Assembly (NCBI GenBank): GCA_045661205.1
Contig: JAZRFE010000018.1
Coordinates: 65,523 to 129,522 of the forward strand
Reading direction: 5' to 3'
Source: Bacteroidaceae bacterium
GTDB taxonomy: Bacteria; Bacteroidota; Bacteroidia; Bacteroidales; Bacteroidaceae
DNA length: 64,000 nucleotides
A program made the position numbers and the translations under genes. Under the pieces are notes generated by a model that was not told where the DNA came from, did no database searches, and was given only the letters and a program-made list of their open reading frames with translations. Below are positions 9,309 to 44,619 of this stretch, in pieces (positions within the stretch are counted from its first letter, which is position 1; each line of letters opens with the position of its first letter).

Positions 9309-9310
9309 TC

Positions 9311-9484: not shown

Positions 9485-9503
9485 ACAAATAAAACAAAAT
9501 ATT

Positions 9504-15062: not shown

Positions 15063-15063
15063 T

Positions 15064-16190: not shown

Positions 16191-16192
16191 GT

Positions 16193-16585: not shown

Positions 16586-16592
16586 AAAGAGT

Positions 16593-16630
16593 AAATCCTG
16601 TCTATTCGTAGAAATAGACAGGATTTTTCT
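16593..16630 (+). terminator. strong hairpin terminator between convergent genes
   Basis: Perfect 14-bp stem AAATCCTGTCTATT / AATAGACAGGATTT (16593..16606 / 16613..16626), 6-nt loop, T-rich tail. Confidence 0.8.
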
Positions 16631-16647
16631 GATATATTCTTAATGTA

Positions 16648-17118
16648 TTATTCCTCAATCTCAAATGGCATAAATCCCATCTCTTCAGCAGCCTTTTCTT
16701 TAGTCATGCAAAAGAATGTAGCCACCGAACGACAACACAAATCCTTATTACCATCATATATGCAGGCCTCAATTTCTGCCAGGTTGCGACGCTGGTTCAA
16801 TACTCGGCCACGAATCTCCAAACACTCTTCATTTGTGGAAATTGATTTCTTGAACTGCAACTCCATTTTAGCTGTTACGGCAGCAGTCTGCAATTTGCGC
16901 GACACCACCCAACCGCTTGTTTCGTCGAGTAGCAAAGCCTGGATACCACCATGCAACACATCTATCCAACCTTGATACCTCGCTTGAGGTTTCCAAAGGC
17001 AAACTACATCGTCGCCGTCCTCGTAAAATTCCATTTTAAGACCGGCCTCGTTTGTAGGGCAACAACCAATACACTGGTAGCCCTCTTTACCTATCCAGGG
17101 ATTTTTAATCTTCTTCAT
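16648..17118 (-). CDS. PaaI-family (hotdog) thioesterase
   Basis: 156 aa. Has an N-terminal CIGCCP zinc-ribbon-like motif and the VLHGGIQALLLDE hotdog core. Confidence 0.7.
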   Translation of the reverse strand: MKKIKNPWIGKEGYQCIGCCPTNEAGLKMEFYEDGDDVVCLWKPQARYQGWIDVLHGGIQALLLDETSGWVVSRKLQTAAVTAKMELQFKKSISTNEECLEIRGRVLNQRRNLAEIEACIYDGNKDLCCRSVATFFCMTKEKAAEEMGFMPFEIEE

Positions 17119-32029: not shown

Positions 32030-32662
32030 TCAAAGATTAGATATTTTTACAACAACATCATACATGGCGAGAATCTCATCCTTTCTCACTGTAAACGCCG
32101 GATAGTTGGGCGAAGTGCACACAAGTACATCTTTGTCGTCGGTCGATGTGGAACAGTGTTTAATAAAACGCGAGTCATGTGTAACAATCATATACACCCT
32201 ATCTACGTTCACCGTTGCGAACGGGTCCATCTTATTAACTCCAATAATGTCCCCGGGATTTATTTCGGGTTGCATGGATGTTCCCACCACCGGAAAAAAG
32301 AAATCGGCTTTCATTCCCGGAATGCTTACAAATGTATCGGGCGTTTCGCATTCATCATTCATCGCATCACGCATACCGGCACTGACAGTGATTGAATTAT
32401 AGTATGGAGAAACATTCTGAAGATATTCTGACGGAGAATCATCTTCTTTGTACATATTGCCATTGCCATTTAAAATCCACTCGATTGACACCTCGGGGAA
32501 ACATTTGTTAATGGCACGTATCAGTTCCATTGACACACTTCCCGCCTCATTTAGTTGCCTGTTTAGAGTGCGCTGAGGAATCTCAAGCACGACACTTGCT
32601 CTGCTCACGTTAAGATTGTTATCAGCCAATAGAATCAATATACGTTTTTTTATATTCTCCAT
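32030..32662 (-). CDS. CI/LexA-type repressor (HTH plus S24 peptidase)
   Basis: 210 aa. It has an N-terminal HTH (VSRASVVLEIPQRTLNRQL), the S24 catalytic Ser motif GTSMQP and a downstream Lys in RFIKH. Confidence 0.85.
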   Translation of the reverse strand: MENIKKRILILLADNNLNVSRASVVLEIPQRTLNRQLNEAGSVSMELIRAINKCFPEVSIEWILNGNGNMYKEDDSPSEYLQNVSPYYNSITVSAGMRDAMNDECETPDTFVSIPGMKADFFFPVVGTSMQPEINPGDIIGVNKMDPFATVNVDRVYMIVTHDSRFIKHCSTSTDDKDVLVCTSPNYPAFTVRKDEILAMYDVVVKISNL

Positions 32663-32761
32663 TTATATTGCTACACTTTTTATAAAAAATGTCATTATTG
32701 TTTTATAATCAATGCGATAAAATGTAATGAGTGAATATGCCTTATTTAGATTGATTACAAA

Positions 32762-32777
32762 TAGCCAAATTTGGCTA
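32762..32777. promoter_or_regulatory. perfect 16-bp palindrome, candidate operator
   Basis: TAGCCAAATTTGGCTA lies in the divergent region between the repressor and ORF 32927. It ends 32 nt upstream of a TATATTTG -7 box. Confidence 0.45.
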
Positions 32778-32808
32778 AATATTATATCCATTTTCTTGAT
32801 TTAGGGAT

Positions 32809-32816
32809 TATATTTG
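32809..32816 (+). promoter_or_regulatory. candidate -7 box (TATATTTG), rightward
   Basis: TAnnTTTG. A second box, TACATTTG, lies at 32864..32871, upstream of the ATG at 32927. Confidence 0.3.
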
Positions 32817-32926
32817 TACACGAAAAGTGTTATTTCAACAACCTAAATAGTCGGTTCCGTCTCTACATTTGCACAAACATACGATAAAAATTGATACTGA
32901 CAAAACAAACATAACTAATAATTGAT

Positions 32927-33304
32927 ATGAGCGAAAAAGAATTATGCAAAAAGGTCTCACAAAGTGAGCGACTAATTGAAAAATGTCTCGAATGGTATGA
33001 ATATTTGTATTACAAATTTTTCAGAAGAGAAAAGACGTGGTGCAGCCATCTTGTCGAGTACTACTGTATACACAGGAATTTTCATGAACAAAAGTTCGTT
33101 CAAGACTTTCTAGAAGAGCGTAAAGGAATTCTTTCCAATAATCGCCATCGCATGGTCGTAAATGTCATCCCCGATATTCCGGACACATGCGAAGTGGGCA
33201 AAGTGATGCTTTACAGCAAAGGCAAATATATTCACGAAGCAACATTAAAAATAAGAAAACCTTTAACAGAAAACAATATCGTTTTCTGGTCGTTCGATAA
33301 ATGA
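32927..33304 (+). CDS. hypothetical protein in the Cro/antirepressor position
   Basis: 125 aa. Transcribed divergently from the repressor. No motif was recognised. Confidence 0.45.
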   Translation: MSEKELCKKVSQSERLIEKCLEWYEYLYYKFFRREKTWCSHLVEYYCIHRNFHEQKFVQDFLEERKGILSNNRHRMVVNVIPDIPDTCEVGKVMLYSKGKYIHEATLKIRKPLTENNIVFWSFDK

Positions 33305-33326
33305 GAAAACAATGCACCACAAACAA

Positions 33327-33368
33327 AAAATCCCTTCCGTATGCAATACCAAATACAGAAGGGATTTT
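33327..33368. terminator. bidirectional hairpin between convergent genes
   Basis: 11-bp stem AAAATCCCTTC / GAAGGGATTTT with a 20-nt loop, flanked by A and T runs. Confidence 0.55.
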
Positions 33369-33385
33369 TTGTCATAAGCACCGAA

Positions 33386-33814
33386 CTATTCTCTATCAAT
33401 CTTTCTTCTTGAGTACAACAGTTCGTTAATTGCCGAAGCTGTGCTGTTGTTCAATGAGCGTAAAAGCATTGCCGAGTCGGGTTTGACATTGTCAAGCCAA
33501 CGTGCAGTCAGCGCAGTCTCTACATAGTTACATGCAAGAAGCTGTAAAGAATCGGCCTGAGCATCATCCCAGTTGCTCGGCAATGCCAACAAAAATTCAA
33601 CACTATCGTCGGTAGCCGACATACGCGCAAAAGGCAACATTAATTGCAACAACTCATCTATGGCTGCAAGCCACAAAGGTTCTACCCTCTCATTGTCGTC
33701 ATCACAATATGCAATCGCCAGATTATTCTCATTTTTCAAAGCAAGGAGAGCCGTCTGACGTTTCATCCCATCGAAAATCTTATTTTTATCTATACAAATA
33801 TTCATATAAAGCAA
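33386..33814 (-). CDS. head-completion/connector-like protein, paralog 1
   Basis: 142 aa or less (alternative starts at M4 and M17). It shares a C-terminal motif with ORFs 39100 and 39617 (Y-[LV]-V..W[LI]...P[DA]...EL). Confidence 0.5.
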   Translation of the reverse strand: MLYMNICIDKNKIFDGMKRQTALLALKNENNLAIAYCDDDNERVEPLWLAAIDELLQLMLPFARMSATDDSVEFLLALPSNWDDAQADSLQLLACNYVETALTARWLDNVKPDSAMLLRSLNNSTASAINELLYSRRKIDRE

Positions 33815-33919
33815 AATTATAAAAAAGAGAAACGAACAATATTACTGAATCTGTACCGCGTATAAAATGTAATTGTCGATTCATGAACATGTCGTTTCTC
33901 TTTTCCTTATCAACAATAA

Positions 33920-34201
33920 TCAACCTTCGAGTATTTTTACAAGTTGAAACTCACTGCGACAGCACAACTTTATAAAGAGTCCGCTCAACACGCCGAGTAA
34001 AGTAATCTCACACTTCTCTTCGTCGATGCCGAAGTCATCGTGAAACAGATATTCTTCCTCGCCATCGATACTTGCAAAAACCTCCACAGGATAAGGCCCT
34101 GCCTTATGTACTCTCACTCTTATGTCCCCTCCAAGAGATTTTATAGGAACCGTTTCCCATACATCGCCATTCTTGGCAAATGAAATATTCACAACAGCCA
34201 T
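33920..34201 (-). CDS. small hypothetical structural-module protein
   Basis: 93 aa. It starts 4 nt after the upstream stop. Confidence 0.45.
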   Translation of the reverse strand: MAVVNISFAKNGDVWETVPIKSLGGDIRVRVHKAGPYPVEVFASIDGEEEYLFHDDFGIDEEKCEITLLGVLSGLFIKLCCRSEFQLVKILEG

Positions 34202-34205
34202 ATAA

Positions 34206-34838
34206 CTACTTGTTATTGTTACACAAAGCGGCAGCCAGACTCATGAAGGCATTCGCCGCATCATATTTCTCAAACACATTACACACAAGTCCTGCACACT
34301 GATAGGCAACAGCTTGCAATAGAGAATCGTTATTCGATGCAAGCCCCTTGCTGCTATTATAGGTACCCTCGTAGAGTAAATACTCCACAGTGGGTATCGA
34401 ATCCTCTTCAACAGGATAAACATAAAGCAGTATCCCCTGGGCGGACGGCACCTCTATACAAACAGGAGATGATTTTCCCGCGCGTGTGTATTTGTTTGCT
34501 TGCGCAGCGTCTGCCACTGAGCCCGGAGAGGAAACATTGTAACATGGGTGTAGCCAATTATCCAACTTAAACGAAACGAGTCTGACATAATCCTCAGGTA
34601 ATATAATCACACCATATTCACCATTCCAAAGAGAGAGATTGCAGTTTGCCATACTCTTCCCATTCAACATGCCACTCTTTTTATTCATCTGAACAAAAAG
34701 CACAGCCTCGGGAAGCAGCTCCGAAATATATTTATCAAGCAACAATGTGTCGTCGGTAATAAGCGAAATGCTATTCTCGCTCTGCGCTTCGTTGAGCAGT
34801 GTGCGCACCTTCTCTTTAAGTACACTATCGGCCATCAT
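34206..34838 (-). CDS. head-tail connector/adaptor-like protein
   Basis: About 210 aa. The ATG at 34838 forms an ATGA overlap with the upstream stop. It sits two genes downstream of the capsid gene. Confidence 0.45.
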   Translation of the reverse strand: MMADSVLKEKVRTLLNEAQSENSISLITDDTLLLDKYISELLPEAVLFVQMNKKSGMLNGKSMANCNLSLWNGEYGVIILPEDYVRLVSFKLDNWLHPCYNVSSPGSVADAAQANKYTRAGKSSPVCIEVPSAQGILLYVYPVEEDSIPTVEYLLYEGTYNSSKGLASNNDSLLQAVAYQCAGLVCNVFEKYDAANAFMSLAAALCNNNK

Positions 34839-35341
34839 AACCAATTAGGGAACGAAATGCGCAATTCATCTGCTTTGGCACGAACAGCCCCTTTATTCTG
34901 AAGTTCCGAAAGAGAAACCTTATAAGGCTCACCCATCAGCACACTACGCGCCTGCTGTACGTTGGTCACATTTACAAAGACCTCCTGTTTGCAATTCTCA
35001 TCGACAGGAGCGGCCTCGGCAACCGACTCTTTTTCTTCAATTTTTTCAGTGGAACCTATCACTATCTCACCGTTGCGAAACTGCTCACTCTCCTCTATGG
35101 CCTTCTGGTAAAGAGGGTTGTCGGTGACATAATTTGCAGGAGTCATTCCCGCCGAATTGATTGAACCACCTGTAAAGTCCACACGCAACAGAGCCTTTCC
35201 CACTCTGAAATAGCAACTGCGCTCTATCTGCCCTCTAATCTCGTAAGTAACTTTTCTTTTCATAAACCAAATAACTTTTCTTAAAATGCGTCGCAGTCTG
35301 TAAGTTGCATATTTGTGTGCATTCCCCACAAACTGCGACAC
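34835..35341 (-). CDS. hypothetical head-associated protein
   Basis: 168 aa (alternative start M27 at 35263, MKRKVTYEIRG). It has an acidic middle and a C-terminal helix-extension-helix-like segment (VSLSELQNKGAVRAKADELRISFPNW). Confidence 0.45.
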   Translation of the reverse strand: MSQFVGNAHKYATYRLRRILRKVIWFMKRKVTYEIRGQIERSCYFRVGKALLRVDFTGGSINSAGMTPANYVTDNPLYQKAIEESEQFRNGEIVIGSTEKIEEKESVAEAAPVDENCKQEVFVNVTNVQQARSVLMGEPYKVSLSELQNKGAVRAKADELRISFPNWL

Positions 35342-35361
35342 GATTATATAAATTTATACTA

Positions 35362-36981
35362 CTAAGCAGCCATGATTTCGCCGGTGAACTCAATCCAGCT
35401 GCTACCGGTGAAGGTTACCACTGTTCCCGCTGCGAATTTCACCGTAGTACCGTCTTCCTTGAAGACATCGGCTGTAAGAATTACAACATCGTTCACAGCA
35501 GGCGACTGAGGCAGAGAATCTGCGCTTATCACACGCGAAGCACCGGGAATGCTTCTTGCTGCTGCGTTAGCACCATTTACCCAAATGTGCGAGTAACCCT
35601 TCAAACAGAGACAGTCGATAGTCATCACCACCTCTCGTTTAGCCTCCTCACCCTCTACATTCTCGCTCTTGCAATCCTCGTTTTTCATCCAATAACGCAC
35701 AAGACCATTCTCGTCGATAAGACCGCCGCAATGCGAGTAACCGAGGGCGTCGAGTGTGGGGTCGTGAACAAGGTCTATATCACCGAATACTGTGTGAATC
35801 TTTGTACACTCAAGGTCGAATACCTTGCTGCCTGTCACAGTGATATTCTTGTGAAGAGTTAAGTCGATTTTCTGAATATCGTTCAGCAACTGCTTACCCA
35901 ACAACCAGATAGCCTTCTTCGAGCAATTATAGCCGGTGAATTTCACCATTGAAAGGTTGATTAAGTCAGCAAAAGTGATGGTTGCCGAGAGGTCGTACTG
36001 ACGTTTGAACTGCCAGCGCAAGCCCTTAGAGAAGTAATCCCATTGATAACCCATGGCTGCATCCATAGCCTGCACCTTAAACTTACCGGGCTGACCTACC
36101 CACGCTGTGCGACAGCTCTCCAGACGGAACTGACGAAGAACAGCCTCGGCAATCTGCGACTGACTAAAAGGCAAGCGTTTTTTCTGCGCCTTGAAGTAAT
36201 CACTCACAATGCTGTTACACAACTGTTTCTGCAAATACATGCGTTCGGGAACGGGAACAATGGTGCTGGGAGCAATAAACTTCTGAGTCTCATATGCAGC
36301 CGAAGACAGAAGTATAATCTCAGTGCCGGCAGGGATTGTGGGCACTACGCAATAGTCATCGGTAGCATTCACTTTAGGGCCATTGACAGCCATGGCGATG
36401 GGAGCCTCTGTGGTGCTGTTCTTACCCACGAAGAAAAGCATCAGATCCACACCGGGAAGCTCTGTCTGACCAGACGAGTCGTAACCGTTTACACCTTTAC
36501 AGATAGCCGTGTAGTACTCCTGAAAGATTTTGCGGTCGGCAGTTGTGGCAAAGGGAATCTCGGCACGTGTGGCATTGATGCCTTCATACTCGGCACTTGT
36601 AGTAGCTTTAGAGCGTTTCTCGTCTATGAGATAGTGGTCTACCTCGAACGAAGTTACAGGCACCTGACGAGTAATTCTGCGTTTGATGGTGTCAATAATA
36701 CTCTCGTCGCTTGCAATCATTGTGATTTTCGAGTCAATCTCGGGCTGGATAAACTCGCCACCGAGTTCCGAAGCATTAGAAACGGTAGTAGCCTCACCGC
36801 TACCATGTGTCGCATAACCCGCAATACCCTTTGAAGCTGTGGGTGAACCGGGCGCAACCACCGTTGCCATAGCCATTAACACACCTCCCGTGCTCTCCTC
36901 GAAGAGATACAAGGCAATGCTCACCAATGAAAGAAGAACAAACAAAGGATTCTTCTTAACAAATAAAAAAAGTTTTTTCAT
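35362..36981 (-). CDS. putative major capsid protein (HK97-fold)
   Basis: 539 aa. It lies directly downstream of the scaffold-like gene. The N-terminal pattern PEIDSKITMIASDESIIDTIKRRI..VPVTSFEVDHYLID resembles the N-arm/P-domain start of HK97-fold capsid proteins. The alternative start at 36876 removes a hydrophobic leader. Confidence 0.6.
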   Translation of the reverse strand: MKKLFLFVKKNPLFVLLSLVSIALYLFEESTGGVLMAMATVVAPGSPTASKGIAGYATHGSGEATTVSNASELGGEFIQPEIDSKITMIASDESIIDTIKRRITRQVPVTSFEVDHYLIDEKRSKATTSAEYEGINATRAEIPFATTADRKIFQEYYTAICKGVNGYDSSGQTELPGVDLMLFFVGKNSTTEAPIAMAVNGPKVNATDDYCVVPTIPAGTEIILLSSAAYETQKFIAPSTIVPVPERMYLQKQLCNSIVSDYFKAQKKRLPFSQSQIAEAVLRQFRLESCRTAWVGQPGKFKVQAMDAAMGYQWDYFSKGLRWQFKRQYDLSATITFADLINLSMVKFTGYNCSKKAIWLLGKQLLNDIQKIDLTLHKNITVTGSKVFDLECTKIHTVFGDIDLVHDPTLDALGYSHCGGLIDENGLVRYWMKNEDCKSENVEGEEAKREVVMTIDCLCLKGYSHIWVNGANAAARSIPGASRVISADSLPQSPAVNDVVILTADVFKEDGTTVKFAAGTVVTFTGSSWIEFTGEIMAA

Positions 36982-37011
36982 AAAGTAAATATTTAAATAG
37001 TTAATAAAAAA

Positions 37012-37809
37012 TTACGCTTTCAATGCAGCATCAAGCAAGGTGTTTTCTTTGGGGCGTCGAGTTGTCTGTGCAGGGGCCACACTGTTCATGCCCTTGGGAA
37101 GACCATCGCCAAACTCCTCCTGCATACGTCTGATGTTCGTATTTCTGCCTTTTATGTTTCCTGCGGCAAAGGCATCCTCCACGTCTTGCTCATATCTTAT
37201 CGCATGTTCCAATGCCTGACACACTTCGGGTGTATAACTTCCCGACAAAATGGGGAAAACAAGCTGTTCCCACACATTGTCCATAAAATCGGCAGGCTCA
37301 TAACCATGCTCGCGGCAGAAGTTCTCAATCACAGGACGGCTTCTTTCGAGGTTGGCCTCATACTCTCTGCGATTACGTGCCATCTCATAGGCCTCTTTGC
37401 GACGCTCCTCGTCCATGAGCAACATCTCTTCGTACTCGGGCGAACCCTCTTCAAAGTCGAGAAAAGATTTTCCATAATATCGTGCCATAGCAGCGTGAGA
37501 ACTACGTTTGCCCTGCACGACATCCGACAACAGTTGGGCAAGACGAGGGTCGAGCTCAAGGATAGAAGCCAGACGCTCATTCTGTTCATAATTACTTCGG
37601 AAAAACTCTTTCAGCATCTCTTGCGACTCGGGAGAGTTCAATTTGAAAGACTTTCCAAAAAACTCCTGCAACCACTCTTCAATGGCTGCATAAGGATTTG
37701 TCACAGTGCTTTCTGTTTGCACTGCCTGCTCGGCTCCGGGCTGAGCCTGCAACTCTGCATTATGCTCTGCGGCCGGTACCTGTTCCTGATTTTGATAAAT
37801 TTTATCCAT
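37012..37809 (-). CDS. scaffolding-like protein
   Basis: The likely start is ATG 37809 (MDKIYQNQEQ). The protein is acidic, predicted to be all-helical and Glu/Arg-rich (EERRKEAYEMARNRREYEANLERSR). It lies immediately upstream of the capsid gene. Confidence 0.5.
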   Translation of the reverse strand: MDKIYQNQEQVPAAEHNAELQAQPGAEQAVQTESTVTNPYAAIEEWLQEFFGKSFKLNSPESQEMLKEFFRSNYEQNERLASILELDPRLAQLLSDVVQGKRSSHAAMARYYGKSFLDFEEGSPEYEEMLLMDEERRKEAYEMARNRREYEANLERSRPVIENFCREHGYEPADFMDNVWEQLVFPILSGSYTPEVCQALEHAIRYEQDVEDAFAAGNIKGRNTNIRRMQEEFGDGLPKGMNSVAPAQTTRRPKENTLLDAALKA

Positions 37810-37912
37810 ACAATTGATATTTATTTGTTTCGTCGGCAAAGTAAAGGCTGAATGCAAAGTTTAAGGTTGCAGAATTAACACTTTGAGAATTGCAGTCCAT
37901 CATTTTGGGCAC

Positions 37913-37943
37913 AAAAAAAGCGAGACAACCGAAGTTGCCTCGC
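37913..37943 (-). terminator. rho-independent terminator (minus strand) after ORF 38056
   Basis: On the minus strand: GCGAGGCAAC-TTCG-GTTGTCTCGC followed by T7. This is a 10-bp stem (one G-U pair) with a UUCG loop. Confidence 0.75.
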
Positions 37944-38055
37944 GTACATTGCTTATATAAGCCTAATAAATATATCACAAAACCATAGAAACATACCGGC
38001 AGATACCAATATGCATAAATAAAAATTCAGATTAATGACGCCGCTATTAAATTGA

Positions 38056-38484
38056 TTAGAAGTTAGTGGTGCCTGCGTCGCAGTATGAGTCTACAATTTC
38101 CGCTCTGTATATAGTTTCATTAATTCGCGAAACCTTTACATAATCGTTAGTCTCTGCCTTAAGTAGATAGAATAGCTCACATTTACTTTCTGATGTATTA
38201 TTGACCCTGAAGCATTTATATTGCCCAACTTCTATTCCTGATATAGAACCATCTTTAACACAACTATTTGAAAGGTACCCTTCCCACCATTTATTTGTAT
38301 TATCACCTGATGGAACATCTGGTACGACAATATCTACAGAATTATTTGATGCAGCAATCATGTTCTCTGTACTTAATCTGTGCTCCTTTATTTCAGGATA
38401 AATAAATATTTTTTTCATTGTTATTAATGACGATTTTGTGAGTTTAATGTGTTTTCCATTTGCAAATTTATATAAAATAATCAT
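38056..38484 (-). CDS. hypothetical protein, AT-rich cargo gene
   Basis: 142 aa (the likely start is M23 at 38418, MKKIFIYPEIK). It is visibly more AT-rich than its neighbours and has its own terminator. Confidence 0.45.
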   Translation of the reverse strand: MIILYKFANGKHIKLTKSSLITMKKIFIYPEIKEHRLSTENMIAASNNSVDIVVPDVPSGDNTNKWWEGYLSNSCVKDGSISGIEVGQYKCFRVNNTSESKCELFYLLKAETNDYVKVSRINETIYRAEIVDSYCDAGTTNF

Positions 38485-38629
38485 TATGCGATAAAAAATA
38501 AGGCTACAAATACAAATTTATAATATAAAATAACGATTTGCACTCTATGCTATTTAAAGCATTTGTTCATTTTTTTAATTACCAAAAAAAATGTGTTAAT
38601 TCTGCATACAAATTCGGGGATTTTGATTA

Positions 38630-38637
38630 TATTTTTG
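38630..38637 (+). promoter_or_regulatory. candidate -7 box (TATTTTTG) for the rightward packaging operon
   Basis: TAnnTTTG 15 nt upstream of the ATG at 38653. Confidence 0.3.
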
Positions 38638-38652
38638 TAGTCAAAAAAGATT

Positions 38653-39093
38653 ATGGAACAGAACAGTGAAATCACCGTCGGTGAAATGCGAAAACAGGCC
38701 ATCATCGACACCTTTTTTGAAACAATGAAAAATTGCCGCAAAATCGATCCTTTTGCCTCTTTGGAGAAAATCATCGAAAAGGCAGCAAATACAAAAGCTC
38801 CGCGTTTCTTTGTCTCTTTTGAAAATGCCCGACGATTCGTATCGATGCTTGTACGCAAGAAGAGACTGCCTCTTGTGAACAAAAACAAGCTGGAGATGTA
38901 CAAAGAACTCTTTCGTCGCTACAAGAAACAGCGTCAAGAAGATTTTACAAGCAGAGTCATCAACTACACCCTACTCGAAAAAATCATTGAAGAGCCGGCG
39001 CCTTCGTTCTATCTCGACACAGAGACCTTCCGTTGTCTGCTCTACAAGGCACTTAGAGAAAGAAATCACGAACTTTCATTCTGTAAAATCTAA
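38653..39093 (+). CDS. small protein with an internal tandem duplication (possible DNA-binding or small-terminase role)
   Basis: 146 aa. It has two repeats, LEKIIEKAANTKAPRFFVSFENARRFVSML and LEKIIEEPAPSFYLDTETFRCLLYKA. It is the first gene of the operon that ends in terL. Confidence 0.5.
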   Translation: MEQNSEITVGEMRKQAIIDTFFETMKNCRKIDPFASLEKIIEKAANTKAPRFFVSFENARRFVSMLVRKKRLPLVNKNKLEMYKELFRRYKKQRQEDFTSRVINYTLLEKIIEEPAPSFYLDTETFRCLLYKALRERNHELSFCKI

Positions 39094-39099
39094 TCAGCT

Positions 39100-39612
39100 A
39101 TGAGACGAAAAGAAGAGCTTAAAATTTCCACCTACGATGTTACGCAACGTATATATACATATAGTTACTATGTTGGCGAATCTCGGCGAAACAGTGGGTT
39201 GCCCATAAAACTTGCGGCAAGTATGCAGGCATCGCCCGATGACCATCATCAGCTAAACGACCACATGAATGTTGCTGCAAGCGAATTGGTAAAAATGATA
39301 AACAGTACTTTTTGTGAATGCACTACATCAAGTGTGCCCGACAGCGAACACGCCGGCTACTCAATTCTTAAATTCAGGCTCATCCCCCCGCAATACTTCC
39401 CCATGCACTTGTTTGGCGAGTTGCAAAAAAACATGACAAGCTATTTGGTGATGCGCACCCTGCAACAGTGGATATTGCAACATAAACCCGACGAGGCTGT
39501 AATAACCACGTCAGAGGCCGAGAAACTTACCATTCAACTGCGTGAACTGATGAACTGTCGAGTGAAACCGCGTAAAGGTCAAAACGCAACAAAAACAAAC
39601 ATAGAACTTTAA
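39100..39612 (+). CDS. connector-like protein, paralog 2
   Basis: 170 aa. The C-terminal segment MTSYLVMRTLQQWILQHKPDEA...LRELM aligns with paralogs 1 and 3. Confidence 0.5.
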   Translation: MRRKEELKISTYDVTQRIYTYSYYVGESRRNSGLPIKLAASMQASPDDHHQLNDHMNVAASELVKMINSTFCECTTSSVPDSEHAGYSILKFRLIPPQYFPMHLFGELQKNMTSYLVMRTLQQWILQHKPDEAVITTSEAEKLTIQLRELMNCRVKPRKGQNATKTNIEL

Positions 39613-39616
39613 TGAA

Positions 39617-40090
39617 ATGGAATACAATATCTTGATAAAAAAGGAAGATCTTGTCCACCGGATAGACCTTCTTACCCACTATCACGCCGAGAGTGAAAAG
39701 CGTAAAGATATAAACGCTGATATAGGCGAGACTTCGTTCGACGACGAAGAACTTTTGGAGGGCTTTCTCACAAAGGCTGCAAACGAACTTATTGCAGCAC
39801 AAGCGGGCCGTTTCGAGAATATATCATTCAAGAGCAATCGCAACTATATTGATATAACCTTTGTTGCGAGCAATGAAAATGGTGAGCATCTGACACCCAT
39901 CCTAAAGCAGGCAATAACAGACTATCTTGTAAATGAGATAATGACGCAATGGTTGCTGATACGCTATCCCGCATGGAGTCAGACATACATTGCAATGAGA
40001 GGCGAACTACACTCACAAGTAAAAGAACTTTTTGCAGCTTTTTGCAATAAAAAAATCAGACGACGCTCCACAAACCTCGCAGGAATATGA
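39617..40090 (+). CDS. connector-like protein, paralog 3
   Basis: 157 aa. The C-terminal segment ITDYLVNEIMTQWLLIRYPAWS...VKELF aligns with paralogs 1 and 2. It overlaps terL by 4 nt. Confidence 0.5.
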   Translation: MEYNILIKKEDLVHRIDLLTHYHAESEKRKDINADIGETSFDDEELLEGFLTKAANELIAAQAGRFENISFKSNRNYIDITFVASNENGEHLTPILKQAITDYLVNEIMTQWLLIRYPAWSQTYIAMRGELHSQVKELFAAFCNKKIRRRSTNLAGI

Positions 40091-42117
40091 CGCTTATGGC
40101 AGAGATCCCACAAATGATAGAAGAAAATTATAGACGGTTGAAGATAAATTCGGCCGTCTATAATCCGGTGACCGGCGAAGGCTCCACATCCGTTGCGCGC
40201 AAATGGATTGAGATTGAAGGTTTTCCCCTCACACGTATGAACCTTCCATTAGATATGTTGAACGAAAAACTCACAGAGGAACTTATCGAAAAGGGAGCGC
40301 ATGGGTTTCTTGTGGCTCATGGTAACAAAAATCCAACCCATAGGAATATAATAACATTATGGCTTGAATTTTGCCGTAAGCGCATAAAATACGACTTTGA
40401 ATATTGGGCGAAAACGATGGCTGTAATCTCGGACAAAGGTCGAGGACGCGACATACCTTTCACTCTCAACCGCCCACAGCGTTTCTATCTTAGCGAAATG
40501 GAAAAGCTGCGTTGCGCAGAAAAACCGATAGACATCATATTATGCAAAGCGAGACAATGGGGAGGCTCTACACTGACACAGCTCTATATGCTTTGGATAC
40601 AGCTTGTTCACAAACGCAATTGGAACTCGGTGATATGTGGCGATGTAGAGAAACAATCCTCGATAGTTGCCGGTATCATGGCCAAGGTGATTAACAACTA
40701 TCCTTTGTGGGCCACTGGAGGCAAAAAACTTACCACTACGCCCTATCAAGGCACACAAAAGACAAGAACAATAAGCTGGAGCAACAGCCGATACTCTCTA
40801 GGCTCTTCGCAAAAGCCCGACTCTCTTCGAAGCGAAGATATAAGCATGGCCCATCTCACCGAGGTCGGGCTGTGGAAAGCTACTGCCGGAAGAAAACCCG
40901 AGGATCTTGTACAGTCAATCTTTGGTTCGATAGCCGGAGGAGCATACACTGTTAAGGTAATGGAGTCCACTGCAAAAGGAGTAGGAAATTTCTTTCATCG
41001 CACATGGATAGATGCCACAGCCGGACGAAACAATTTTACCCCCGTATTTGTACCCTGGTACACTATCGACCTATACAGCAAGCAGCTCACTCCTGCCGAC
41101 TACACACCATTCATAGAAAGCATGAACGAGTACGAGCAACAGCTTTTCGCGTTAGGTGCCACACTCGAAGCCATCGCATGGTACCGAGACAAAAGGCGTG
41201 AAATGCCCGAAGAATGGCGACTCTTCTCCGAGTTTCCCTCTACTGCAAACGAAGCCTTCCAAAGCACAGGCCGACGCGTATTCAAAATTTCGTACGTTAA
41301 AAACCTACGTGAATATTGTGTTCCTCCTGCGTGGACGGGTGACATTGTAAGCAGGGAAAAATATGATGTAGAGCACAGAGCAAATAAAAGTATTGTTACT
41401 TTTGAACCATTGCAACCAGGTGAACCCGACGACAAGAATGTGCTCAAAGTGTGGCTGATGCCCGACACACAACACAACTACCGCGACCGTTACATCGTAA
41501 CAGTGGATGTTGGTGGTGTCTCCGAAAAAGCCGACTACTCCTGCATAATGGTTGCAGATAGACTGCCCATGCTCGAAGGTGGTGTTCCCGAAATAGCAGC
41601 CTGCTGGCACGGACACATTGAGCACGATAAACTCGCGTGGAAAGCTGTTGAAATAGCAAAAGCATACAACAACGCATTGCTTGTGATAGAGTCGAACACC
41701 CTGGAGACAGAGGGTACCGAAGGCGACAATTTCGAGTATATACTCAACGAGATTGCCGGGAAATATAGCAATCTTTACAGTCGTACATCCTCGCAGGAGA
41801 TAAGACAAGGACGGCCACGCCGTTGGGGATTTCACACAAATCCATCCACCAAGCCCATGGTCATAAATTTCCTTATAAAAGCCATACGCGATGGTTTATA
41901 TGTGGAACGATGCATCGAGACCACGTACGAACTCGACTTATACGAACTAAAAGAGAATGGTAAAGAGATGGGAGCCGTCGAAGGCAACCATGACGACCGC
42001 GTAATGGCAACAGCAATCCTTATATGGATATGTTACAACTACCCTTTGCCCACAGCTCAGCAAACAGAGAAAACAGGAAGAAGCCGTACAAGGATAGTAA
42101 GTGAGGCTAGTATATAA
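40087..42117 (+). CDS. terL: terminase large subunit
   Basis: 676 aa. ATPase motifs are a Walker A-like CKARQWGGST, a Walker B-like ISMAHLTE and the coupling motif FPSTANEAF. Nuclease acidic motifs are YIVTVDVGG, LLVIESN and GNHDDRVMA. Confidence 0.88.
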   Translation: MTLMAEIPQMIEENYRRLKINSAVYNPVTGEGSTSVARKWIEIEGFPLTRMNLPLDMLNEKLTEELIEKGAHGFLVAHGNKNPTHRNIITLWLEFCRKRIKYDFEYWAKTMAVISDKGRGRDIPFTLNRPQRFYLSEMEKLRCAEKPIDIILCKARQWGGSTLTQLYMLWIQLVHKRNWNSVICGDVEKQSSIVAGIMAKVINNYPLWATGGKKLTTTPYQGTQKTRTISWSNSRYSLGSSQKPDSLRSEDISMAHLTEVGLWKATAGRKPEDLVQSIFGSIAGGAYTVKVMESTAKGVGNFFHRTWIDATAGRNNFTPVFVPWYTIDLYSKQLTPADYTPFIESMNEYEQQLFALGATLEAIAWYRDKRREMPEEWRLFSEFPSTANEAFQSTGRRVFKISYVKNLREYCVPPAWTGDIVSREKYDVEHRANKSIVTFEPLQPGEPDDKNVLKVWLMPDTQHNYRDRYIVTVDVGGVSEKADYSCIMVADRLPMLEGGVPEIAACWHGHIEHDKLAWKAVEIAKAYNNALLVIESNTLETEGTEGDNFEYILNEIAGKYSNLYSRTSSQEIRQGRPRRWGFHTNPSTKPMVINFLIKAIRDGLYVERCIETTYELDLYELKENGKEMGAVEGNHDDRVMATAILIWICYNYPLPTAQQTEKTGRSRTRIVSEASI

Positions 42118-42120
42118 ACA

Positions 42121-42148
42121 GGAAGGTGCAGCAAAAGCTGCACCTTCC
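42121..42148 (+). terminator. hairpin between convergent terL and the TRIC-family gene
   Basis: Perfect 12-bp stem GGAAGGTGCAGC / GCTGCACCTTCC with an AAAA loop. No clear T run follows. Confidence 0.5.
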
Positions 42149-42168
42149 CTACTTAACCATATCAAAAT

Positions 42169-42789
42169 TTATTTATCCTCGTCGGCACCACTAAGCACCG
42201 GCAAGCATATATTGTATTTCACGGCAAGCGTTCTAACAACAAAAACCGCAATACCGCAAATTATTTGTGTCATATGTACCTCCATTCCAAGTCTGTCGCA
42301 CAAGCAATAGACAAGAGCACCGATAACGCAGGCCATGGCATAAATCTCTTTTCTAAAGAACAGAGGCTCCTCATTGATGAATATATCTCGCATTACACCA
42401 CCTGCCGAACCGGTCAAAGTAGCCATTACCACAGCAACCCATATCGGATAGTCGAGAGCCAAAGTCTTTTCCACACCAACGACAACGAAAAGTGCCAGAC
42501 CAATGGTGTCGAATATAAAAAACGTATTGTTCAGGTGGATAAGGTATTTACCAAAAAGAATTACCCAGAAAAGTGCGAATGCTGAGCAGATAAGATACAT
42601 TGAATTAGTCATCCAGAAAGGAGTCACATCCAACAACACGTCACGAATAGTACCACCTCCGATAGCAGTAACCACTCCCACAACATAAGCACCGAACCAG
42701 TCAAAACGTTTCGCCGATGCCAATCGTATACCACTTATGGCAAAAGCAAATGTGCCCGCAAACTCCAAAACATCTACAAATGAAGGCAT
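42169..42789 (-). CDS. trimeric intracellular cation channel family protein (UPF0126/YadS-like)
   Basis: 206 aa and polytopic, with duplicated GG-x-xRD motifs (GGGTIRDVLL, AGGVMRDIFI). Confidence 0.8.
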   Translation of the reverse strand: MPSFVDVLEFAGTFAFAISGIRLASAKRFDWFGAYVVGVVTAIGGGTIRDVLLDVTPFWMTNSMYLICSAFALFWVILFGKYLIHLNNTFFIFDTIGLALFVVVGVEKTLALDYPIWVAVVMATLTGSAGGVMRDIFINEEPLFFRKEIYAMACVIGALVYCLCDRLGMEVHMTQIICGIAVFVVRTLAVKYNICLPVLSGADEDK

Positions 42790-42890
42790 TATATCTTAAT
42801 AATTGATTAAACATTTATAAATATCACCTCATTTTTGTCGAGACGACAAAAATCAACTGCAAAAATAAATGAAAATAATTTGAAAATAGC

Positions 42891-42898
42891 TACATTTG
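42891..42898 (+). promoter_or_regulatory. candidate -7 box (TACATTTG)
   Basis: TAnnTTTG 33 nt upstream of the ATG at 42931. Confidence 0.35.
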
Positions 42899-42930
42899 TA
42901 AAATAGTTATCAATAAAAATTAGAATACAC

Positions 42931-43287
42931 ATGAAAATAATAGCAATATTGTTTTTTGCAGCCACACTCTCTTTTTCACTTTACTCCTGCGATTCCATTG
43001 AAAACTCATTGAATGAGATGCAAGAAATATGTGAGGATGTAGAGGAGAATTACAAAGAATATACCGATAAGGATTTAGAAAAAATCACTTTGCGTTTCTC
43101 CGAAATAGAAGAAAAGATGGAAGAGAGAGAACTCACAAAAAGCGAACAGAAAAGGCTTGCTAAGTTGAAAGGCAAATATTATGGCATTGTTACCAAAAAC
43201 GCATTGAACGAGTCGCAAAAAAAAATTAAAAAAATCTCCGAGGAGTTAGAAAGTCTTGTCGAAGGTTTTATTGAGGGTCTCGAATAA
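42931..43287 (+). CDS. small coiled-coil lipoprotein
   Basis: 118 aa with the lipoprotein signal LSFSLYSC, followed by a Glu/Lys-rich helix. Confidence 0.55.
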   Translation: MKIIAILFFAATLSFSLYSCDSIENSLNEMQEICEDVEENYKEYTDKDLEKITLRFSEIEEKMEERELTKSEQKRLAKLKGKYYGIVTKNALNESQKKIKKISEELESLVEGFIEGLE

Positions 43288-43299
43288 CAAAAAAATAAA

Positions 43300-44619
43300 A
43301 TGTTAGGTGCTATTGCAGGGGATATTATCGGTTCTTCTTACGAGTTTAATCCCACAAAAGAATATAACTTTGAACTGTTTCGCGAGGGAGCATACCCCAC
43401 AGACGATACAGTGATGACGCTTGCTGTGGCAGAGTGGCTCGTCGAAGACAGCGAACACAGCCACGAAGGATTATCGCAATACATGCGTAAATGGGGACGC
43501 AAGTTCCCCGACTCAGGCTATGGCAACATGTTCAGCGAATGGTTGAGCGATGAAAACACCTCAGCCTATAATAGTTATGGTAATGGCAGCGCAATGCGAG
43601 TAAGCCCGGTGGGATTATACGCAGCAACACTCGACGAAGCATTATGCCTTGCAAAAATATCAGCCGAAGTAACCCACAACCATCCCGAGGGCATAAAAGG
43701 TGCTCAAGCTGTTGCCGCTGCAATATGGATGGCAAAAAGAGGCGAAACAAAAGATAGCATCCGCTGTTACATCGAAAAAGAGTTCGGCTACGATCTAAAA
43801 CAAAAGATAAAAGATATACGCAAGGATTACGAGTTCGACGAAACATGCCAAAGAACAGTTCCTGAAGCAATTATAGCCTATCTCGAGGGTGAAAACTTCG
43901 AAGATGTCATCCGTTTGGCCATCTCTTTAGGTGGCGATGCAGACACATTGGCGGCAATAGCCGGTTCCATTGCCACTGCCACCCCGCAAAAGGAATACAA
44001 GGTTCCCGAAAATATCAAGCACTACTGCCTCTCATTGATGCATCCTAGAATGATAAGCGGAATGTACACATTCTTCCATTATCTCGACCATCCTGTCATC
44101 GACGCGCCCATACGAAATTCCTATAAAGTCGACGAAAGAATATATGCCGGCGAGTACCCTGCCACATCAAATGCTGTATTGGGGCGCAGAGAGGCCGCAC
44201 GTTTCACAAAGTTTGGAATAACACATTTTATCGACCTGACCGAAGCAGGAGAATTATCGCCTTACAATCAATGGCTACCTGCAAACTGCACATATACACG
44301 CTTTCCAATAAAAGATTGTGACACACCTACATCAATGGAGGGTGTTACTGAAATGCTTAAAGGCATAATAGAGACAATCAAGAGCAGTGTGAATGCTAAA
44401 GTATATATCCACTGTCGTGGGGGTATAGGACGCACAGGGACAATCGTGGGGTGTTACTACGCGCTGCTTTTAAAAGACTTCACAGCCTCGATGAATTTAT
44501 TGGAGAGACAGTTTTCACAATGCCCCAAGTCAGCATTCAGACGCACTCCCGAGACGCTTAAGCAACGCCAATTCATAATGAGATACGCCGACTACGTTTC
44601 AAGCAATAGTTACACGTAA
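43300..44619 (+). CDS. ADP-ribosylglycohydrolase fused to a dual-specificity/Cys-based phosphatase domain
   Basis: 439 aa. The N-terminal ARH signature is MLGAIAGDIIGSSYEF...DDTVMT...GGDADT. The C-terminal part carries the PTP loop HCRGGIGRTG (HCx5R). Confidence 0.75.
   Translation: MLGAIAGDIIGSSYEFNPTKEYNFELFREGAYPTDDTVMTLAVAEWLVEDSEHSHEGLSQYMRKWGRKFPDSGYGNMFSEWLSDENTSAYNSYGNGSAMRVSPVGLYAATLDEALCLAKISAEVTHNHPEGIKGAQAVAAAIWMAKRGETKDSIRCYIEKEFGYDLKQKIKDIRKDYEFDETCQRTVPEAIIAYLEGENFEDVIRLAISLGGDADTLAAIAGSIATATPQKEYKVPENIKHYCLSLMHPRMISGMYTFFHYLDHPVIDAPIRNSYKVDERIYAGEYPATSNAVLGRREAARFTKFGITHFIDLTEAGELSPYNQWLPANCTYTRFPIKDCDTPTSMEGVTEMLKGIIETIKSSVNAKVYIHCRGGIGRTGTIVGCYYALLLKDFTASMNLLERQFSQCPKSAFRRTPETLKQRQFIMRYADYVSSNSYT

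Follow-up and report, generated by a model that had tools for sequence, protein, structure and literature searches.

Gene content of the locus

The window (the whole 64-kb stretch of DNA analysed) contains at 32030-42148 a block of ~10 kb, composed of a CI/LexA-type repressor and two divergent operons (Table 1). The leftward operon encodes a scaffold-like protein, an SU10-type capsid protein and four small proteins, and the rightward operon encodes three small proteins followed by the large terminase (TerL). This cassette is flanked directly by housekeeping genes on both sides, a DUF4369/AhpC-TSA thioredoxin-like (TlpA-like) gene on the left and a UPF0126/TRIC-type channel gene on the right, and housekeeping genes extend on both flanks for >20 kb. 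The remaining window includes gyrA, clpB and htpG, named via Pfam/PHROGs, as well as lon, tgt, pheS, pgk, nth and murB, among others, named by eye from their translations without family search. A second phage-derived cluster in the same window (8181-16975), with a holin-like gene, an endolysin and a 1897-aa protein, originates outside the phage family of the cassette.

A prior sequence-only reading of this DNA had listed the same open reading frames, all of which exist, with coordinates exact or off by a few codons. It had also described a CI-type repressor at one end, a leftward scaffold-like and capsid-like gene order, a duplicated-repeat small protein in the rightward operon, a terminase with intact ATPase and nuclease residues, and housekeeping genes directly outside, and these assignments are borne out by the family matches, the layout of full phages and the residue conservation given below.

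Table 1. Features of the cassette, with family matches or remarks, and dN/dS of the genes in close pairs
Feature	Position	Strand	Match or remark	dN/dS
CI/LexA-type repressor, S24 self-cleaving peptidase domain	32030..32662	-	Pfam Peptidase_S24 2.9e-07, phrog_4 1.2e-18	
125-aa protein (o125)	32927..33304	+	divergent from repressor, its conserved companion	
Hairpin, 20-nt arms, 95% complementary	33323..33372	.	repeat I1, between convergent o125 and o142	
o142, last gene of leftward operon, third o157/o170 paralogue	33386..33814	-	phrog_19255	0.06-0.16; 0.68 in one near-identical pair
o93, small cassette-specific protein	33920..34201	-	orthologues in 45 loci	0.04-0.10
o212, virion-module protein	34206..34838	-	phrog_22135 6e-16	0.07-0.25
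o168, directly after capsid gene as in full phages	34835..35341	-	orthologues in 66 loci	0.02-0.24; zero dN in one near-identical pair
Major capsid protein, SU10/DUF5309 type	35362..36981	-	phrog_26635 2e-24	0.01-0.04
Scaffold-like acidic protein, first gene of leftward operon	37012..37809	-	phrog_22323 4e-11	0.04-0.16; one pair gave no value
Shared promoter/operator motif (putative) AAAGTGTTAATTCTGCA	37868..37884	-	~60 nt upstream of scaffold gene	
142-aa ORF inserted in divergent promoter region	38056..38484	-	own terminator (terminator-like hairpin) 37920-37943	
Second motif copy AATGTGTTAATTCTGCA, inverted	38590..38606	+	47 nt upstream of o146; repeat I8	
o146, internally duplicated small protein, first gene of rightward operon	38653..39093	+	phrog_27246 4e-18, internal repeat D1	0.01-0.09; zero dN in one near-identical pair
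o170, paralogue of o157 and o142	39100..39612	+	phrog_19255 4e-05	mostly 0.04-0.27; 0.55 and 0.68 in two near-identical pairs
o157	39617..40090	+	phrog_19255	0.04-0.21
Large terminase	40087..42117	+	phrog_2 2.4e-19	0.03-0.11
Hairpin, 13-bp stem	42120..42149	.	between terL and convergent TRIC-type gene	

The repressor motifs, recognized by eye, are the GTSM serine, the RFIKH lysine and an Ala-Gly site within VSAGM, and the stop codon of the repressor and the start codon of the TlpA-like host gene overlap. The repressor occupies the same cassette end in loci L013, L073 and L118/L119, and partial copies are found in L031, L049 and L082. The 125-aa protein has no family match in Pfam or PHROGs; in at least 9 loci an orthologue adjoins the repressor or the end of the cassette, and by its position the protein is a candidate regulator. 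The adjoining hairpin is likely a two-way terminator.

In the leftward operon, the scaffold-like gene precedes the capsid gene, as it does in every relative and in full phages, and a scaffold function is inferred from its position and composition. The capsid protein is 24% identical to gp56 ('DUF5309 family protein') of Bacteroides phage BF1-TP2 and retains 26 of 27 phage-invariant residues. Pfam SU10_MCP is matched by 7 of 10 members of its family (best 2.5e-33), the window copy alone scoring 0.052, and it is via the family that the protein is assigned to the HK97-fold class. The true start of o168 is probably the ATG at 35263 (~142 aa), from which it is 36% identical to a 130-aa gene of the prophage L086. 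The o212 gene also follows the capsid gene in full phages (homologues BF1-TP2 gp54 and a 188-aa gene in L086); a profile search against the PDB, one of the checks proposed for the ORFs, gave no match, and a role as adaptor is a guess. No family match in Pfam or PHROGs was found for o93. The earlier reading of the four small genes of this operon as head-completion or connector-like was not confirmed by these searches.

In the rightward operon, homologues of o146 lie upstream of terL in full phages (BF1-TP2 gp58, L086, L121), and this position makes o146 a candidate DNA-recognition or small-terminase-like subunit. The next two genes had been read as two connector-like paralogs. Their paralogy holds (o170 is 25% identical to o157), but the family has a third member in o142, and the connector label could not be confirmed. 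The o157-type gene is thus triplicated in the cassette, compared with a single copy in full phages (BF1-TP2 gp59; L121 13977-14462), and no copy was detected in L085/L086. Because L121 and BF1-TP2 keep their one copy just upstream of terL, the family is suggested to be a packaging accessory rather than a connector. Foldseek, also among the proposed checks, was run on the AlphaFold2 model of o157 (pLDDT 80.7) and gave no match in the PDB and only one in BFVD, an uncharacterised podovirus protein (E 2e-5). The terminase is 40% identical to BF1-TP2 gp60 over 99% of its length and keeps 133 of 135 phage-invariant columns, including K154ARQWGGST162, E259, D474 and H635DD637; neither terminase nor capsid protein carries inactivating changes. 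The cassette ends on the right at the hairpin after terL, a place occupied by the portal or portal operon in related phages.

The two operons diverge from a region in which a conserved TATATTTTTGTA box follows the second motif copy, and a GCAACC/GCATAC-type element upstream of both operons is conserved across loci. A motif common to both operons and kept across species is counted as support for their putative co-regulation. The divergent intergenic region is 843 bp in the window, compared with a median near 250 bp across loci. The 142-aa ORF inserted in it has no homologue in any locus compared and is lineage-specific, lying outside the conserved cassette.

Long form and phage origin

Most relatives carry a longer, 13-kb form of the cassette with three more genes, encoding a 964-aa virion-type protein, a holin-like protein and a lipoprotein, but no endolysin gene. 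The window cassette is a derived short form, shortened from the 13-kb form, and is aptly described as head-and-packaging-only, a label that does not extend to most relatives. The 138-aa gene at the end of the long form is 41% identical to o142. In the full phages L085, L086, L102 and L120, the 964-aa gene follows a separate portal; in the cassettes it is kept and relocated, and the portal is gone. In L118/L119, where the long form is complete, it lies between DUF4488 and ATP synthase genes, and no recombinase is present.

The cassette is homologous to the temperate Bacteroides phages BF1-TP2, BKO1-TP3 and BS-TP4, together with related prophages and IMG/VR contigs (~55-68 kb). Like the cassette, these phages have an SU10-type capsid protein, with scaffold and capsid genes leftward, and an o146-like gene (in some also an o157-like gene) and terL rightward. 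Unlike the cassette, they have a P22-type portal, a giant 3600-4500-aa protein, tail and lysis genes, antirepressors and more, ~12-15 genes having been kept in the cassette. Full phages and cassette share 61-73% identity in the capsid protein and 59-64% in the terminase. In phylogenetic trees, 76 distinct cassette terminases form one clade and 57 capsid proteins another, with no phage sequence inside either and full phages (~55-68 kb) as sister groups. The cassette thus arose once, in the ancestor of a clade of uncultured animal-gut Bacteroidaceae, and descends, now fixed in the chromosome, from a temperate podovirus-type Bacteroidales phage (~55-68 kb) of the type that has a P22-type portal, an SU10-type capsid protein and a giant polyvalent protein.

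Absence of portal and mobility genes

No portal, integrase, replication, tail or lysis genes are present inside 32030-42148, and there are no tRNA genes. An HMM built from five related P22-type portals was run on the window and 87 loci and matched only the five phages; the 64-kb window gave no match, and neither did the sequence up to 10 kb from the cassette in about 76 species, confirming the proposed capsid and terminase module without portal. In relatives that have one, the portal lies directly after terL or within ~8 kb (21 of 21 portal-bearing IMG/VR relatives, and 4 more distant genome relatives). Several ORFs of the cassette lack an assignable function, and one of them might be a divergent portal, or the cassette might be a mobile capsid-forming satellite with an integrase just outside; both are highly unlikely. 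The largest unassigned ORF of the window cassette has 212 codons, and the families with detectable phage homologues (scaffold, capsid, o168, o212, o146, the o157 family and TerL) co-occur with a canonical P22-type portal in full phages, as does the 964-aa protein of the long form, which adjoins a separate portal in the four phages above. A hidden portal among these ORFs was rejected on this ground. A satellite is contradicted by the long housekeeping flanks, by the recombinase-free borders of L118/L119 and by the lack of att-like repeats at the cassette. Without integrase, replication gene or convincing flanking repeat, the cassette is not mobile, and its absence from the IMG/VR viral contigs fits an element never packaged as a unit.

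Conservation and inheritance

The proposed check on conservation across species showed the same gene order in most of the best 80 species-representative genomes and in further metagenome contigs, the carriers being uncultured Bacteroidaceae from animal guts (largely ruminant), about 76 species in number. In 9 close pairs, dN/dS is far below 1 for all cassette genes with measurable dS, nearly all values across genes and pairs falling at 0.01-0.25, over dS values that reach and exceed 1. It is also far below 1 in loci showing only o170-o157-terL, and is 0.05-0.07 in some species where the capsid operon does not lie within 10 kb of these genes. Across 14 loci, the identities of the terminase and of the adjacent MurB are correlated (Pearson 0.92), and mean identity is 82% for the capsid protein, 78% for the terminase and 65% for MurB. 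The left flank is common to the window, L013 and L073, and the right flank to the window, L009 and L073. The flanks of L034 are 93-98% identical to those of L041-43, and its terminase only 79%.

These comparisons indicate that the cassette is inherited with the chromosome under strong purifying selection. The absence of most phage modules, the further losses in relatives and the foreign genes inserted within or beside the locus in some of them could be taken as signs of an ordinary decaying prophage remnant without function, a reading scarcely tenable given the shared architecture in about 76 species, the low dN/dS, the full-length ORFs with intact catalytic residues and the co-divergence with murB. 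Given its chromosomal inheritance and its maintenance in an intact state by selection across about 76 species, the cassette is predicted to be a functional device of phage origin, of a hitherto undescribed kind, rather than a dead prophage.

Proposed mechanism and alternatives

In tailed phages, the terminase fills the shell only through the portal. Since the cassette lacks one, portal and tail would have to come in trans. We favour, with a probability of about 0.4, a stress- or phage-induced shell and terminase system completed by portals and tails from infecting or induced related phages. This proposal starts from the observation that both operons are conserved and intact, and its later steps are inferred. 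DNA damage or phage infection would remove the repressor and both operons would fire, the scaffold and capsid protein would form shells, and the DNA-recognition proteins and terminase of the cassette would select and pump DNA. Portal and tail would be supplied by relatives of the ancestral phage family in the same hosts, and the cassette would act like a capsid-forming satellite without mobility, diverting phage portals and tails into its own shells, loaded with DNA of its own choosing. If so, the host would gain phage interference, chromosomal DNA transfer, or both. Helper candidates exist in the full phages with similar capsid proteins and terminases, and a cassette (L027) and a related prophage (L086) occur together in the MAG RGIG7365. 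Resident helpers would be rare, since full related prophages make up only ~5 of the best 80 species matches.

A possible but more doubtful explanation is a GTA-like multi-locus system, of which the cassette is the head and packaging locus, with unlinked portal, tail and endolysin genes, packaging host DNA for relatives. It is consistent with the vertical inheritance, single origin and purifying selection, with the host-type stress repressor, and with the higher conservation of the capsid protein than of MurB; a capsid more conserved than its housekeeping neighbours looks like part of a self-contained, co-adapted GTA-type machine rather than of an arms race with helpers. An unlinked chromosomal portal is plausible because the long form has holin-like and lipoprotein genes without an endolysin, so that some needed functions lie at other loci and the system would already extend over more than one. 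The selected o170-o157-terL segments distant from the capsid operon point the same way, and the divergent L034 terminase between near-identical flanks is as expected from allele exchange by recombination. By contrast, none of the about 76 species has a portal in the cluster, unlike described GTAs, and the 964-aa gene was retained and relocated without the portal that it follows in phages. Of the best 120 portal-family matches, both long contigs that were inspected (98 and 55 kb) proved to be full phages, and the single named MAG protein turned out to be the portal of prophage L086. The case is also weakened by the other phage-derived cluster of the window, which comes from a different phage family.

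A particle-independent role such as phage defence, with shell and scaffold proteins poisoning or sequestering assembly intermediates of related phages and the terminase nuclease cutting the concatemers of these phages, would need no portal, but is improbable. The portal loss looks specific rather than accidental, the cassette lies at a site where relatives have insertions of variable defence/toxin islands (type III restriction-modification in L009, RHS toxins in L050), and its capsid protein is 71-73% identical to those of co-resident phage types, near enough for co-assembly. However, tight constraint on ~12 genes with measurable dS, including small head-module proteins and the full terminase, is seemingly in excess of what a poison would require.

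Comparison with known systems

As had been proposed, the cassette, with neither portal nor integrase, falls outside the current definitions of both cf-PICIs and GTAs. The P4 and PLE satellites have no capsid gene of their own and remodel the helper capsid (capsid-size redirection), and are mobile and integrase-bearing. The cassette would share their dependence on the virion parts of another phage under the favoured mechanism, but has its own capsid gene and no integrase.

GTAs (RcGTA type, and the podovirus-like FpGTA of Faecalibacterium) resemble the cassette in having phage-derived structural genes fixed in the chromosome, vertical inheritance, slow evolution, purifying selection and host-type regulation, and in lacking an integrase or replication module. 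To our knowledge, all described GTAs have the portal in the main cluster, with tail genes included. Their defining property is the packaging of random host DNA. Among the papers retrieved, none reports a GTA in Bacteroidaceae (PMC12946183).

The cf-PICIs (e.g. EcCIEDL933) are likewise small (10-15 kb), with their own capsid protein and terminase, no tail genes and a repressor at the end, and need phage-made parts for particle completion, as the cassette would under the favoured mechanism. They encode int, alpA, rep, portal, head protease, head-tail connectors and HNH-TerS-TerL, and are transferred from cell to cell and across species (bioRxiv 10.1101/2022.09.08.507074). The cassette differs in lacking integrase, replication gene, portal, protease and HNH, in its inherited chromosomal positions and co-divergence with host genes, and in its closeness to phages, with a capsid protein 61-73% identical to phage capsids, compared with mostly <40% for cf-PICI proteins.

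Gene content of the cassette

The cassette lies between a gene for a TlpA-like thioredoxin-fold protein and a gene for a TRIC-type channel, and its structural genes are arranged in two divergent operons. The leftward operon encodes, in order, a scaffold-like protein, the capsid protein and four small ORFs (o168, o212, o93 and o142), and the rightward operon encodes o146, o170, o157 and the large terminase TerL. The capsid assignment is based on a match to phrog_26635 (2e-24), a 24% identity to a protein with the annotation 'DUF5309 family protein', gp56 of the temperate Bacteroides phage BF1-TP2 (a deposited genome), and matches to Pfam SU10_MCP in 7/10 aligned members of the family (best 2.5e-33). 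The terminase matches phrog_2 (2.4e-19), and is 40% identical to BF1-TP2 gp60 across 99% of its length. The small ORFs o142, o170 and o157 are paralogues (phrog_19255).

The sequence-only reading had labelled most of the small ORFs as head-completion or connector-like, for which no support was obtained by Pfam searches with o157 relatives, PDB searches or Foldseek searches of PDB and BFVD. No Pfam family was detected among 55 remote o157-family homologues, and PDB sequence and profile searches gave no meaningful match for the o157 family, the o212 family, the terminase, the capsid protein or the 964-aa protein of related cassettes. A confident AlphaFold2 model of o157 gave no match in PDB by Foldseek, and a single match in BFVD, an uncharacterised podovirus protein. 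For the capsid protein, AlphaFold2 with input homologues 78-94% identical yielded no usable model (pLDDT 36). Its N-terminus contains a conserved hydrophobic helix (MKKLFLFVKKNPLFVLLSLVSIALYLF), also found in related phage capsid proteins. Such a start is unusual for this type of protein, and is reminiscent of a membrane anchor or of a signal that is cleaved off.

Coordinates of features in the window and, where a locus handle is given, in related loci
Feature	Position	Strand	Basis or remark
Cassette	32030-42148
CI/LexA-type repressor, S24 peptidase domain	32030-32662	-	Pfam/PHROGs
125-aa gene, divergent	32927-33304	+
Hairpin bounding cassette	33323-33372
Capsid protein, leftward operon	35362-36981	-	family matches
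Capsid protein residues 1-26, hydrophobic helix	36904-36981
Scaffold-like protein, leftward operon	37012-37809	-
17-nt motif, first copy	37868-37884
Terminator of 142-aa ORF	37920-37943
Inserted 142-aa ORF	38056-38484	-
17-nt motif, second copy	38590-38606
o146, first gene of rightward operon	38653-39093	+
Large terminase, 676 aa, rightward operon	40087-42117	+
Hairpin bounding cassette	42120-42149
Three genes following terL	42169-44619
Second phage-derived cluster	8181-16975	+	between htpG and a beta-lactamase-family gene
955-965-aa gene, cassettes	L002 703-3597; L005 1070-3949; L118 13874-16759
955-965-aa gene, full phages	L085 12819-15650; L120 12016-14580
Giant proteins, full phages	L120 1-10008; L121 1-9905
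Type III restriction-modification system	L009 134-7711
RHS toxin genes	L050 140-7136

Absence of a portal gene

BF1-TP2 has this divergent layout too, with a 622-aa portal gene immediately after it, and a P22-type portal (PF16510) is found directly after terL or at most ~8 kb away in 21/21 portal-bearing relatives in IMG/VR, and likewise directly after terL or within ~8 kb in four more distant genome relatives. The window and 87 loci were translated in six frames and searched with an HMM built from five related P22-type portals. It matched only the five phages at E <= 10, and nothing in the window or the cassette loci, which speaks against a hidden portal and bears out the earlier claim that the module lacks one. 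Neither the 64-kb window nor the sequence up to 10 kb from the cassette in ~76 species yielded a portal or tail gene, and no cassette ORF matched a head protease family. The largest unassigned ORF of the window cassette has 212 codons. The scaffold-like protein, the capsid protein, o168, o212, o146, the o157 family and TerL all have phage homologues that co-occur with a canonical portal, so none of these families replaces it.

Conservation, forms and origin

Over 3800 database sequences are related to the terminase, the best 120 of them being 73-91% identical, and the best 120 of 700 capsid protein relatives are 78-94% identical. In a scan of one genome per species, the best 80 loci belong nearly all to 'Bacteroidaceae bacterium' MAGs from animal guts, largely those of ruminants. 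All cassette relatives are MAGs or metagenome contigs, and these collections match the window organism at no more than ~90% protein identity. Conservation across species, a check proposed in the sequence-only reading, was confirmed by tblastn mapping, which gave the same gene order in most of the species-scan loci.

The cassette occurs in two forms. The long form of ~13 kb, present in most loci, has four genes to the left of o93, in the order holin-like, lipoprotein, 955-965-aa (phrog_32516) and o142 orthologue, with the repressor and o125 genes located beyond them. The short form lacks the holin-like, lipoprotein and 955-965-aa genes, and is found in the window and five related loci (L010, L013, L014, L073 and L077). 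The 955-965-aa family has no PDB or Pfam match. Several related full phages have its gene after that of the portal (the copy in L086 is shorter, 683 aa), and the long form retains the 964-aa gene without that portal. The 964-aa protein was rejected as a portal itself, as a separate portal adjoins it in the full phages or prophages L085, L086, L102 and L120.

In neighbour-joining trees, 76/76 distinct cassette terminases and 57/57 cassette capsid proteins each form a single clade with no phage sequence inside, the sisters being full phage L088 for the terminase and full phages L085/L086/L102 for the capsid protein, and the short form is a monophyletic subclade. These topologies point to a single domestication event, including the loss of the portal, and a later deletion leading to the short form of the window. 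An IMG/VR scan with the same peptide patterns recovered phages with terminases 59-64% identical, on contigs of up to ~62 kb, and nothing at the terminase identity of at least 72% that defines the cassette clade.

Selection and inheritance

The cassette genes are largely under purifying selection, with dN/dS values (Nei-Gojobori, nine close pairs, a few entries being uncomputed due to saturated dS or failed alignment) of 0.01-0.04 for the capsid protein, 0.03-0.11 for the terminase, 0.04-0.16 for the scaffold, 0.01-0.09 for o146, 0.05-0.17 for o157, 0.07-0.25 for o212, 0.02-0.24 for o168 and 0.04-0.10 for o93, and, in the long form, 0.05-0.19 for the 964-aa protein, 0-0.06 for the holin-like protein and 0.15-0.33 for the lipoprotein. 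For o170 and o142, values of 0.55-0.68 come from two near-identical pairs with few substitutions. The terminase ATPase and nuclease motifs, read as intact from the sequence alone, are so by comparison: the window terminase keeps 133/135 columns invariant in 20 related phage terminases, including the Walker-A-type K154ARQWGGST162, E259, D474 and H635DD637, and the capsid protein keeps 26/27 invariant columns.

The left flank is common to the window, L013 and L073, the right flank to the window, L009 and L073, and the MBL-fold gene and murB of the window immediately adjoin terL in many long-form species. Across 14 loci with murB nearby, pairwise identities of the terminase and MurB are correlated (Pearson 0.92, Spearman 0.71), and cassette proteins are more conserved than the products of neighbouring genes (mean identities of 82% and 78% for the capsid protein and the terminase, against 71% for the neighbouring MBL-fold protein and 65% for MurB). 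Between L034 and L041-L043, flanking housekeeping genes are 93-98% identical, whereas the terminases at the same position are 79% identical, which suggests occasional replacement of cassette alleles between lineages; inheritance is not purely clonal.

Pfam and PHROGs searches found no integrase, excisionase, replication or primase genes in the cassette or beside it, and no alpA match on any cassette ORF. The window contains no tRNA genes, and only short chance-level direct repeats were found around the cassette, with no convincing att sites. DUF4488 and ATP synthase genes flank the complete long form in L118/L119. An intact or recently inactivated Caudoviricetes prophage would have modules for integration (integrase/att), replication, portal, tail and lysis, and would be distributed patchily among strains; the absence of these modules and the conservation of the cassette across species at inherited positions argue against this reading. 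At the level of its genes, the comparisons show the cassette to be an old, single-origin, selected capsid-plus-terminase set with intact enzyme residues and no portal nearby, and not mobile, while simple decay, a hidden portal and a nearby integrase are contradicted by the data.

Boundaries, regulation and insertions

The cassette is bounded by strong hairpins, and the end of the repressor gene, at its stop codon, overlaps with the beginning of the gene for the TlpA-like protein. The repressor has Ser/Lys and Ala-Gly features, read from its sequence, that are typical of self-cleaving S24 repressors, and is presumably self-cleaving. The same 17-nt motif precedes both operons in the window, and a GCAACC/GCATAC-type element together with a Bacteroides-type TAnnTTTG-like box is conserved across species upstream of the scaffold gene and o146.

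Insertions are tolerated in the divergent promoter region and on the left side of the terminase operon. The divergent promoter region in the window contains an inserted 142-aa ORF with its own terminator, of which none of the relatives has a homologue. A type III restriction-modification system was taken up at the cassette locus in L009, and RHS toxin genes lie beside the cassette in L050. Apart from the second phage-derived cluster, the rest of the 64-kb window consists of housekeeping genes, including gyrA, clpB and htpG (assigned by Pfam/PHROGs) and lon, tgt, panB, pheS, nth, pgk and a malic enzyme gene (read by eye from translations). In the window, terL is separated by three inserted genes from the MBL-fold/murB pair, its immediate neighbour in many long-form species. 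They encode a DUF6565 protein, a TRIC-type channel and a 439-aa protein that joins ADP-ribosylglycohydrolase and dual-specificity phosphatase domains of the 'Swiss Army Knife'/polymorphic-toxin type, the last of which could be a conflict-system gene. Among the loci examined, they are confined to the window, L009 and L073, apart from the channel, which also occurs in L008.

Comparison with known elements

[quoted passage not shown] The cassette has in common with them only its own major capsid protein, its own large terminase and the absence of tail genes; neither of its ends carries a module of integrase, alpA and replication genes, the portal HMM and family searches found no portal or head protease of its own, and no small ORF could be identified as a head-tail connector. 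With GTAs it shares the mode of inheritance, being a chromosomally fixed, phage-derived structural cluster that is vertically inherited under purifying selection. GTAs are defined, in addition, by host genes for a complete particle (portal, head and tail) and by particles filled with random fragments of host DNA that are too short to encode the particle. All GTAs described to our knowledge retain the portal in the cluster, in contrast to the cassette. Encapsulin nanocompartments consist of an HK97-fold shell gene and a cargo enzyme, without scaffold or terminase, whereas the cassette capsid gene adjoins a scaffold-like gene and is paired with a terminase operon under selection, and no cargo-type enzyme was found in the cassette.

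Searches of the literature on Bacteroides and Bacteroidota GTAs, satellites and portal-less elements gave nothing matching the cassette, and no description of a GTA, capsid-forming satellite or portal-less capsid/terminase locus in Bacteroidaceae. Given its partial likeness to cf-PICIs and GTAs and the lack of a matching published description, the cassette is placed among domesticated phage elements, and that it represents a new category, though less likely than not, is a serious possibility.

Possible function

Tailed-phage terminases translocate DNA through the portal vertex only, so the cassette would require a portal in trans unless it works without filling capsids, as in a particle-independent defence role, which we consider quite improbable. 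The favoured reading, to which we assign a probability of roughly 0.4, is that the portal would be supplied by phages of the ancestral family. Lacking portal and tail genes, the cassette would omit the parts that a pirate gets ready-made, and keep those that determine shell identity and packaging specificity. These phages and the cassette have hosts in common, since the MAG RGIG7365 contains both a cassette (L027) and a full related prophage with a portal (L086). Capsid proteins of the ancestral phage family are 61-73% identical to those of the cassette (71-73% for the L086 prophage). L027 and L086 form a natural candidate pair for the study of helper dependence. In the related full phages L120 and L121, giant proteins (3851-4510 aa) are encoded directly upstream of the portal, one of them of the polyvalent-protein type with InPase, AAA_34, Helicase_C_4 and LPD38 domains.

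The main alternative, somewhat less probable, is a GTA-like system with portal and tail genes at unlinked loci. It is consistent with the vertical inheritance of the cassette, a capsid protein more conserved than housekeeping genes, the presence in the long form of lysis-type genes without an endolysin, and selection that still acts on o170-o157-terL in loci without an adjacent capsid operon. Such 'TerL-only' loci are weakened as evidence for a split system by the restriction-modification or RHS-toxin islands inserted in several of them, which may push the capsid operon past the 10-kb flank. Supply by phages could also take a more specific form, which we hold only tentatively: an immobile, host-inherited cassette with its own shell and terminase might be deliberately portal-less and act only through capture of the portal-tail complex of an infecting phage, leading to the packaging of host-chosen DNA. 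If true, infection would be turned into the production of particles carrying host-chosen DNA, combining defence and gene transfer in one device.

Phage-derived devices retained by bacteria, such as GTAs, tailocins and satellites, shape gene flow and phage resistance. The Bacteroidaceae are a dominant family of the gut, and we know of no such device reported from them. In this case, a capsid-plus-terminase set lacking the protein thought indispensable for capsid filling has persisted through speciation in a whole clade. It would be either a GTA whose parts are dispersed as in no known case, or an element owned by the host that exploits the portals of incoming phages, and either reading, if true, would reveal a new way in which DNA is transferred or phages are interfered with in the gut and the rumen. 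Among the cassette proteins are also uncharacterised families under strong constraint, namely the o157/o170/o142 triplet, o146, o212 and the 964-aa protein.

A second phage-derived cluster

The second cluster in the window encodes a 375-aa protein with a weak Phage_tail_C match, a 1897-aa protein (phrog_24896, phrog_14959) with C-terminal BspA leucine-rich repeats, a holin-like protein (31% identity to its counterpart in long-form cassettes), a phage lysozyme (1e-37), a 130-aa lipoprotein-like protein and a 110-aa ORF. It was ruled out as the missing tail and lysis half of the cassette, as its large proteins have no homologue in the cassette-related phages; a metagenome scan found no relatives either, and for both reasons it was left out of the system. 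Since homologues of the large proteins are found instead in another phage, BS-TP1, and in gut phage contigs, the cluster looks like an independent remnant or domesticated piece.
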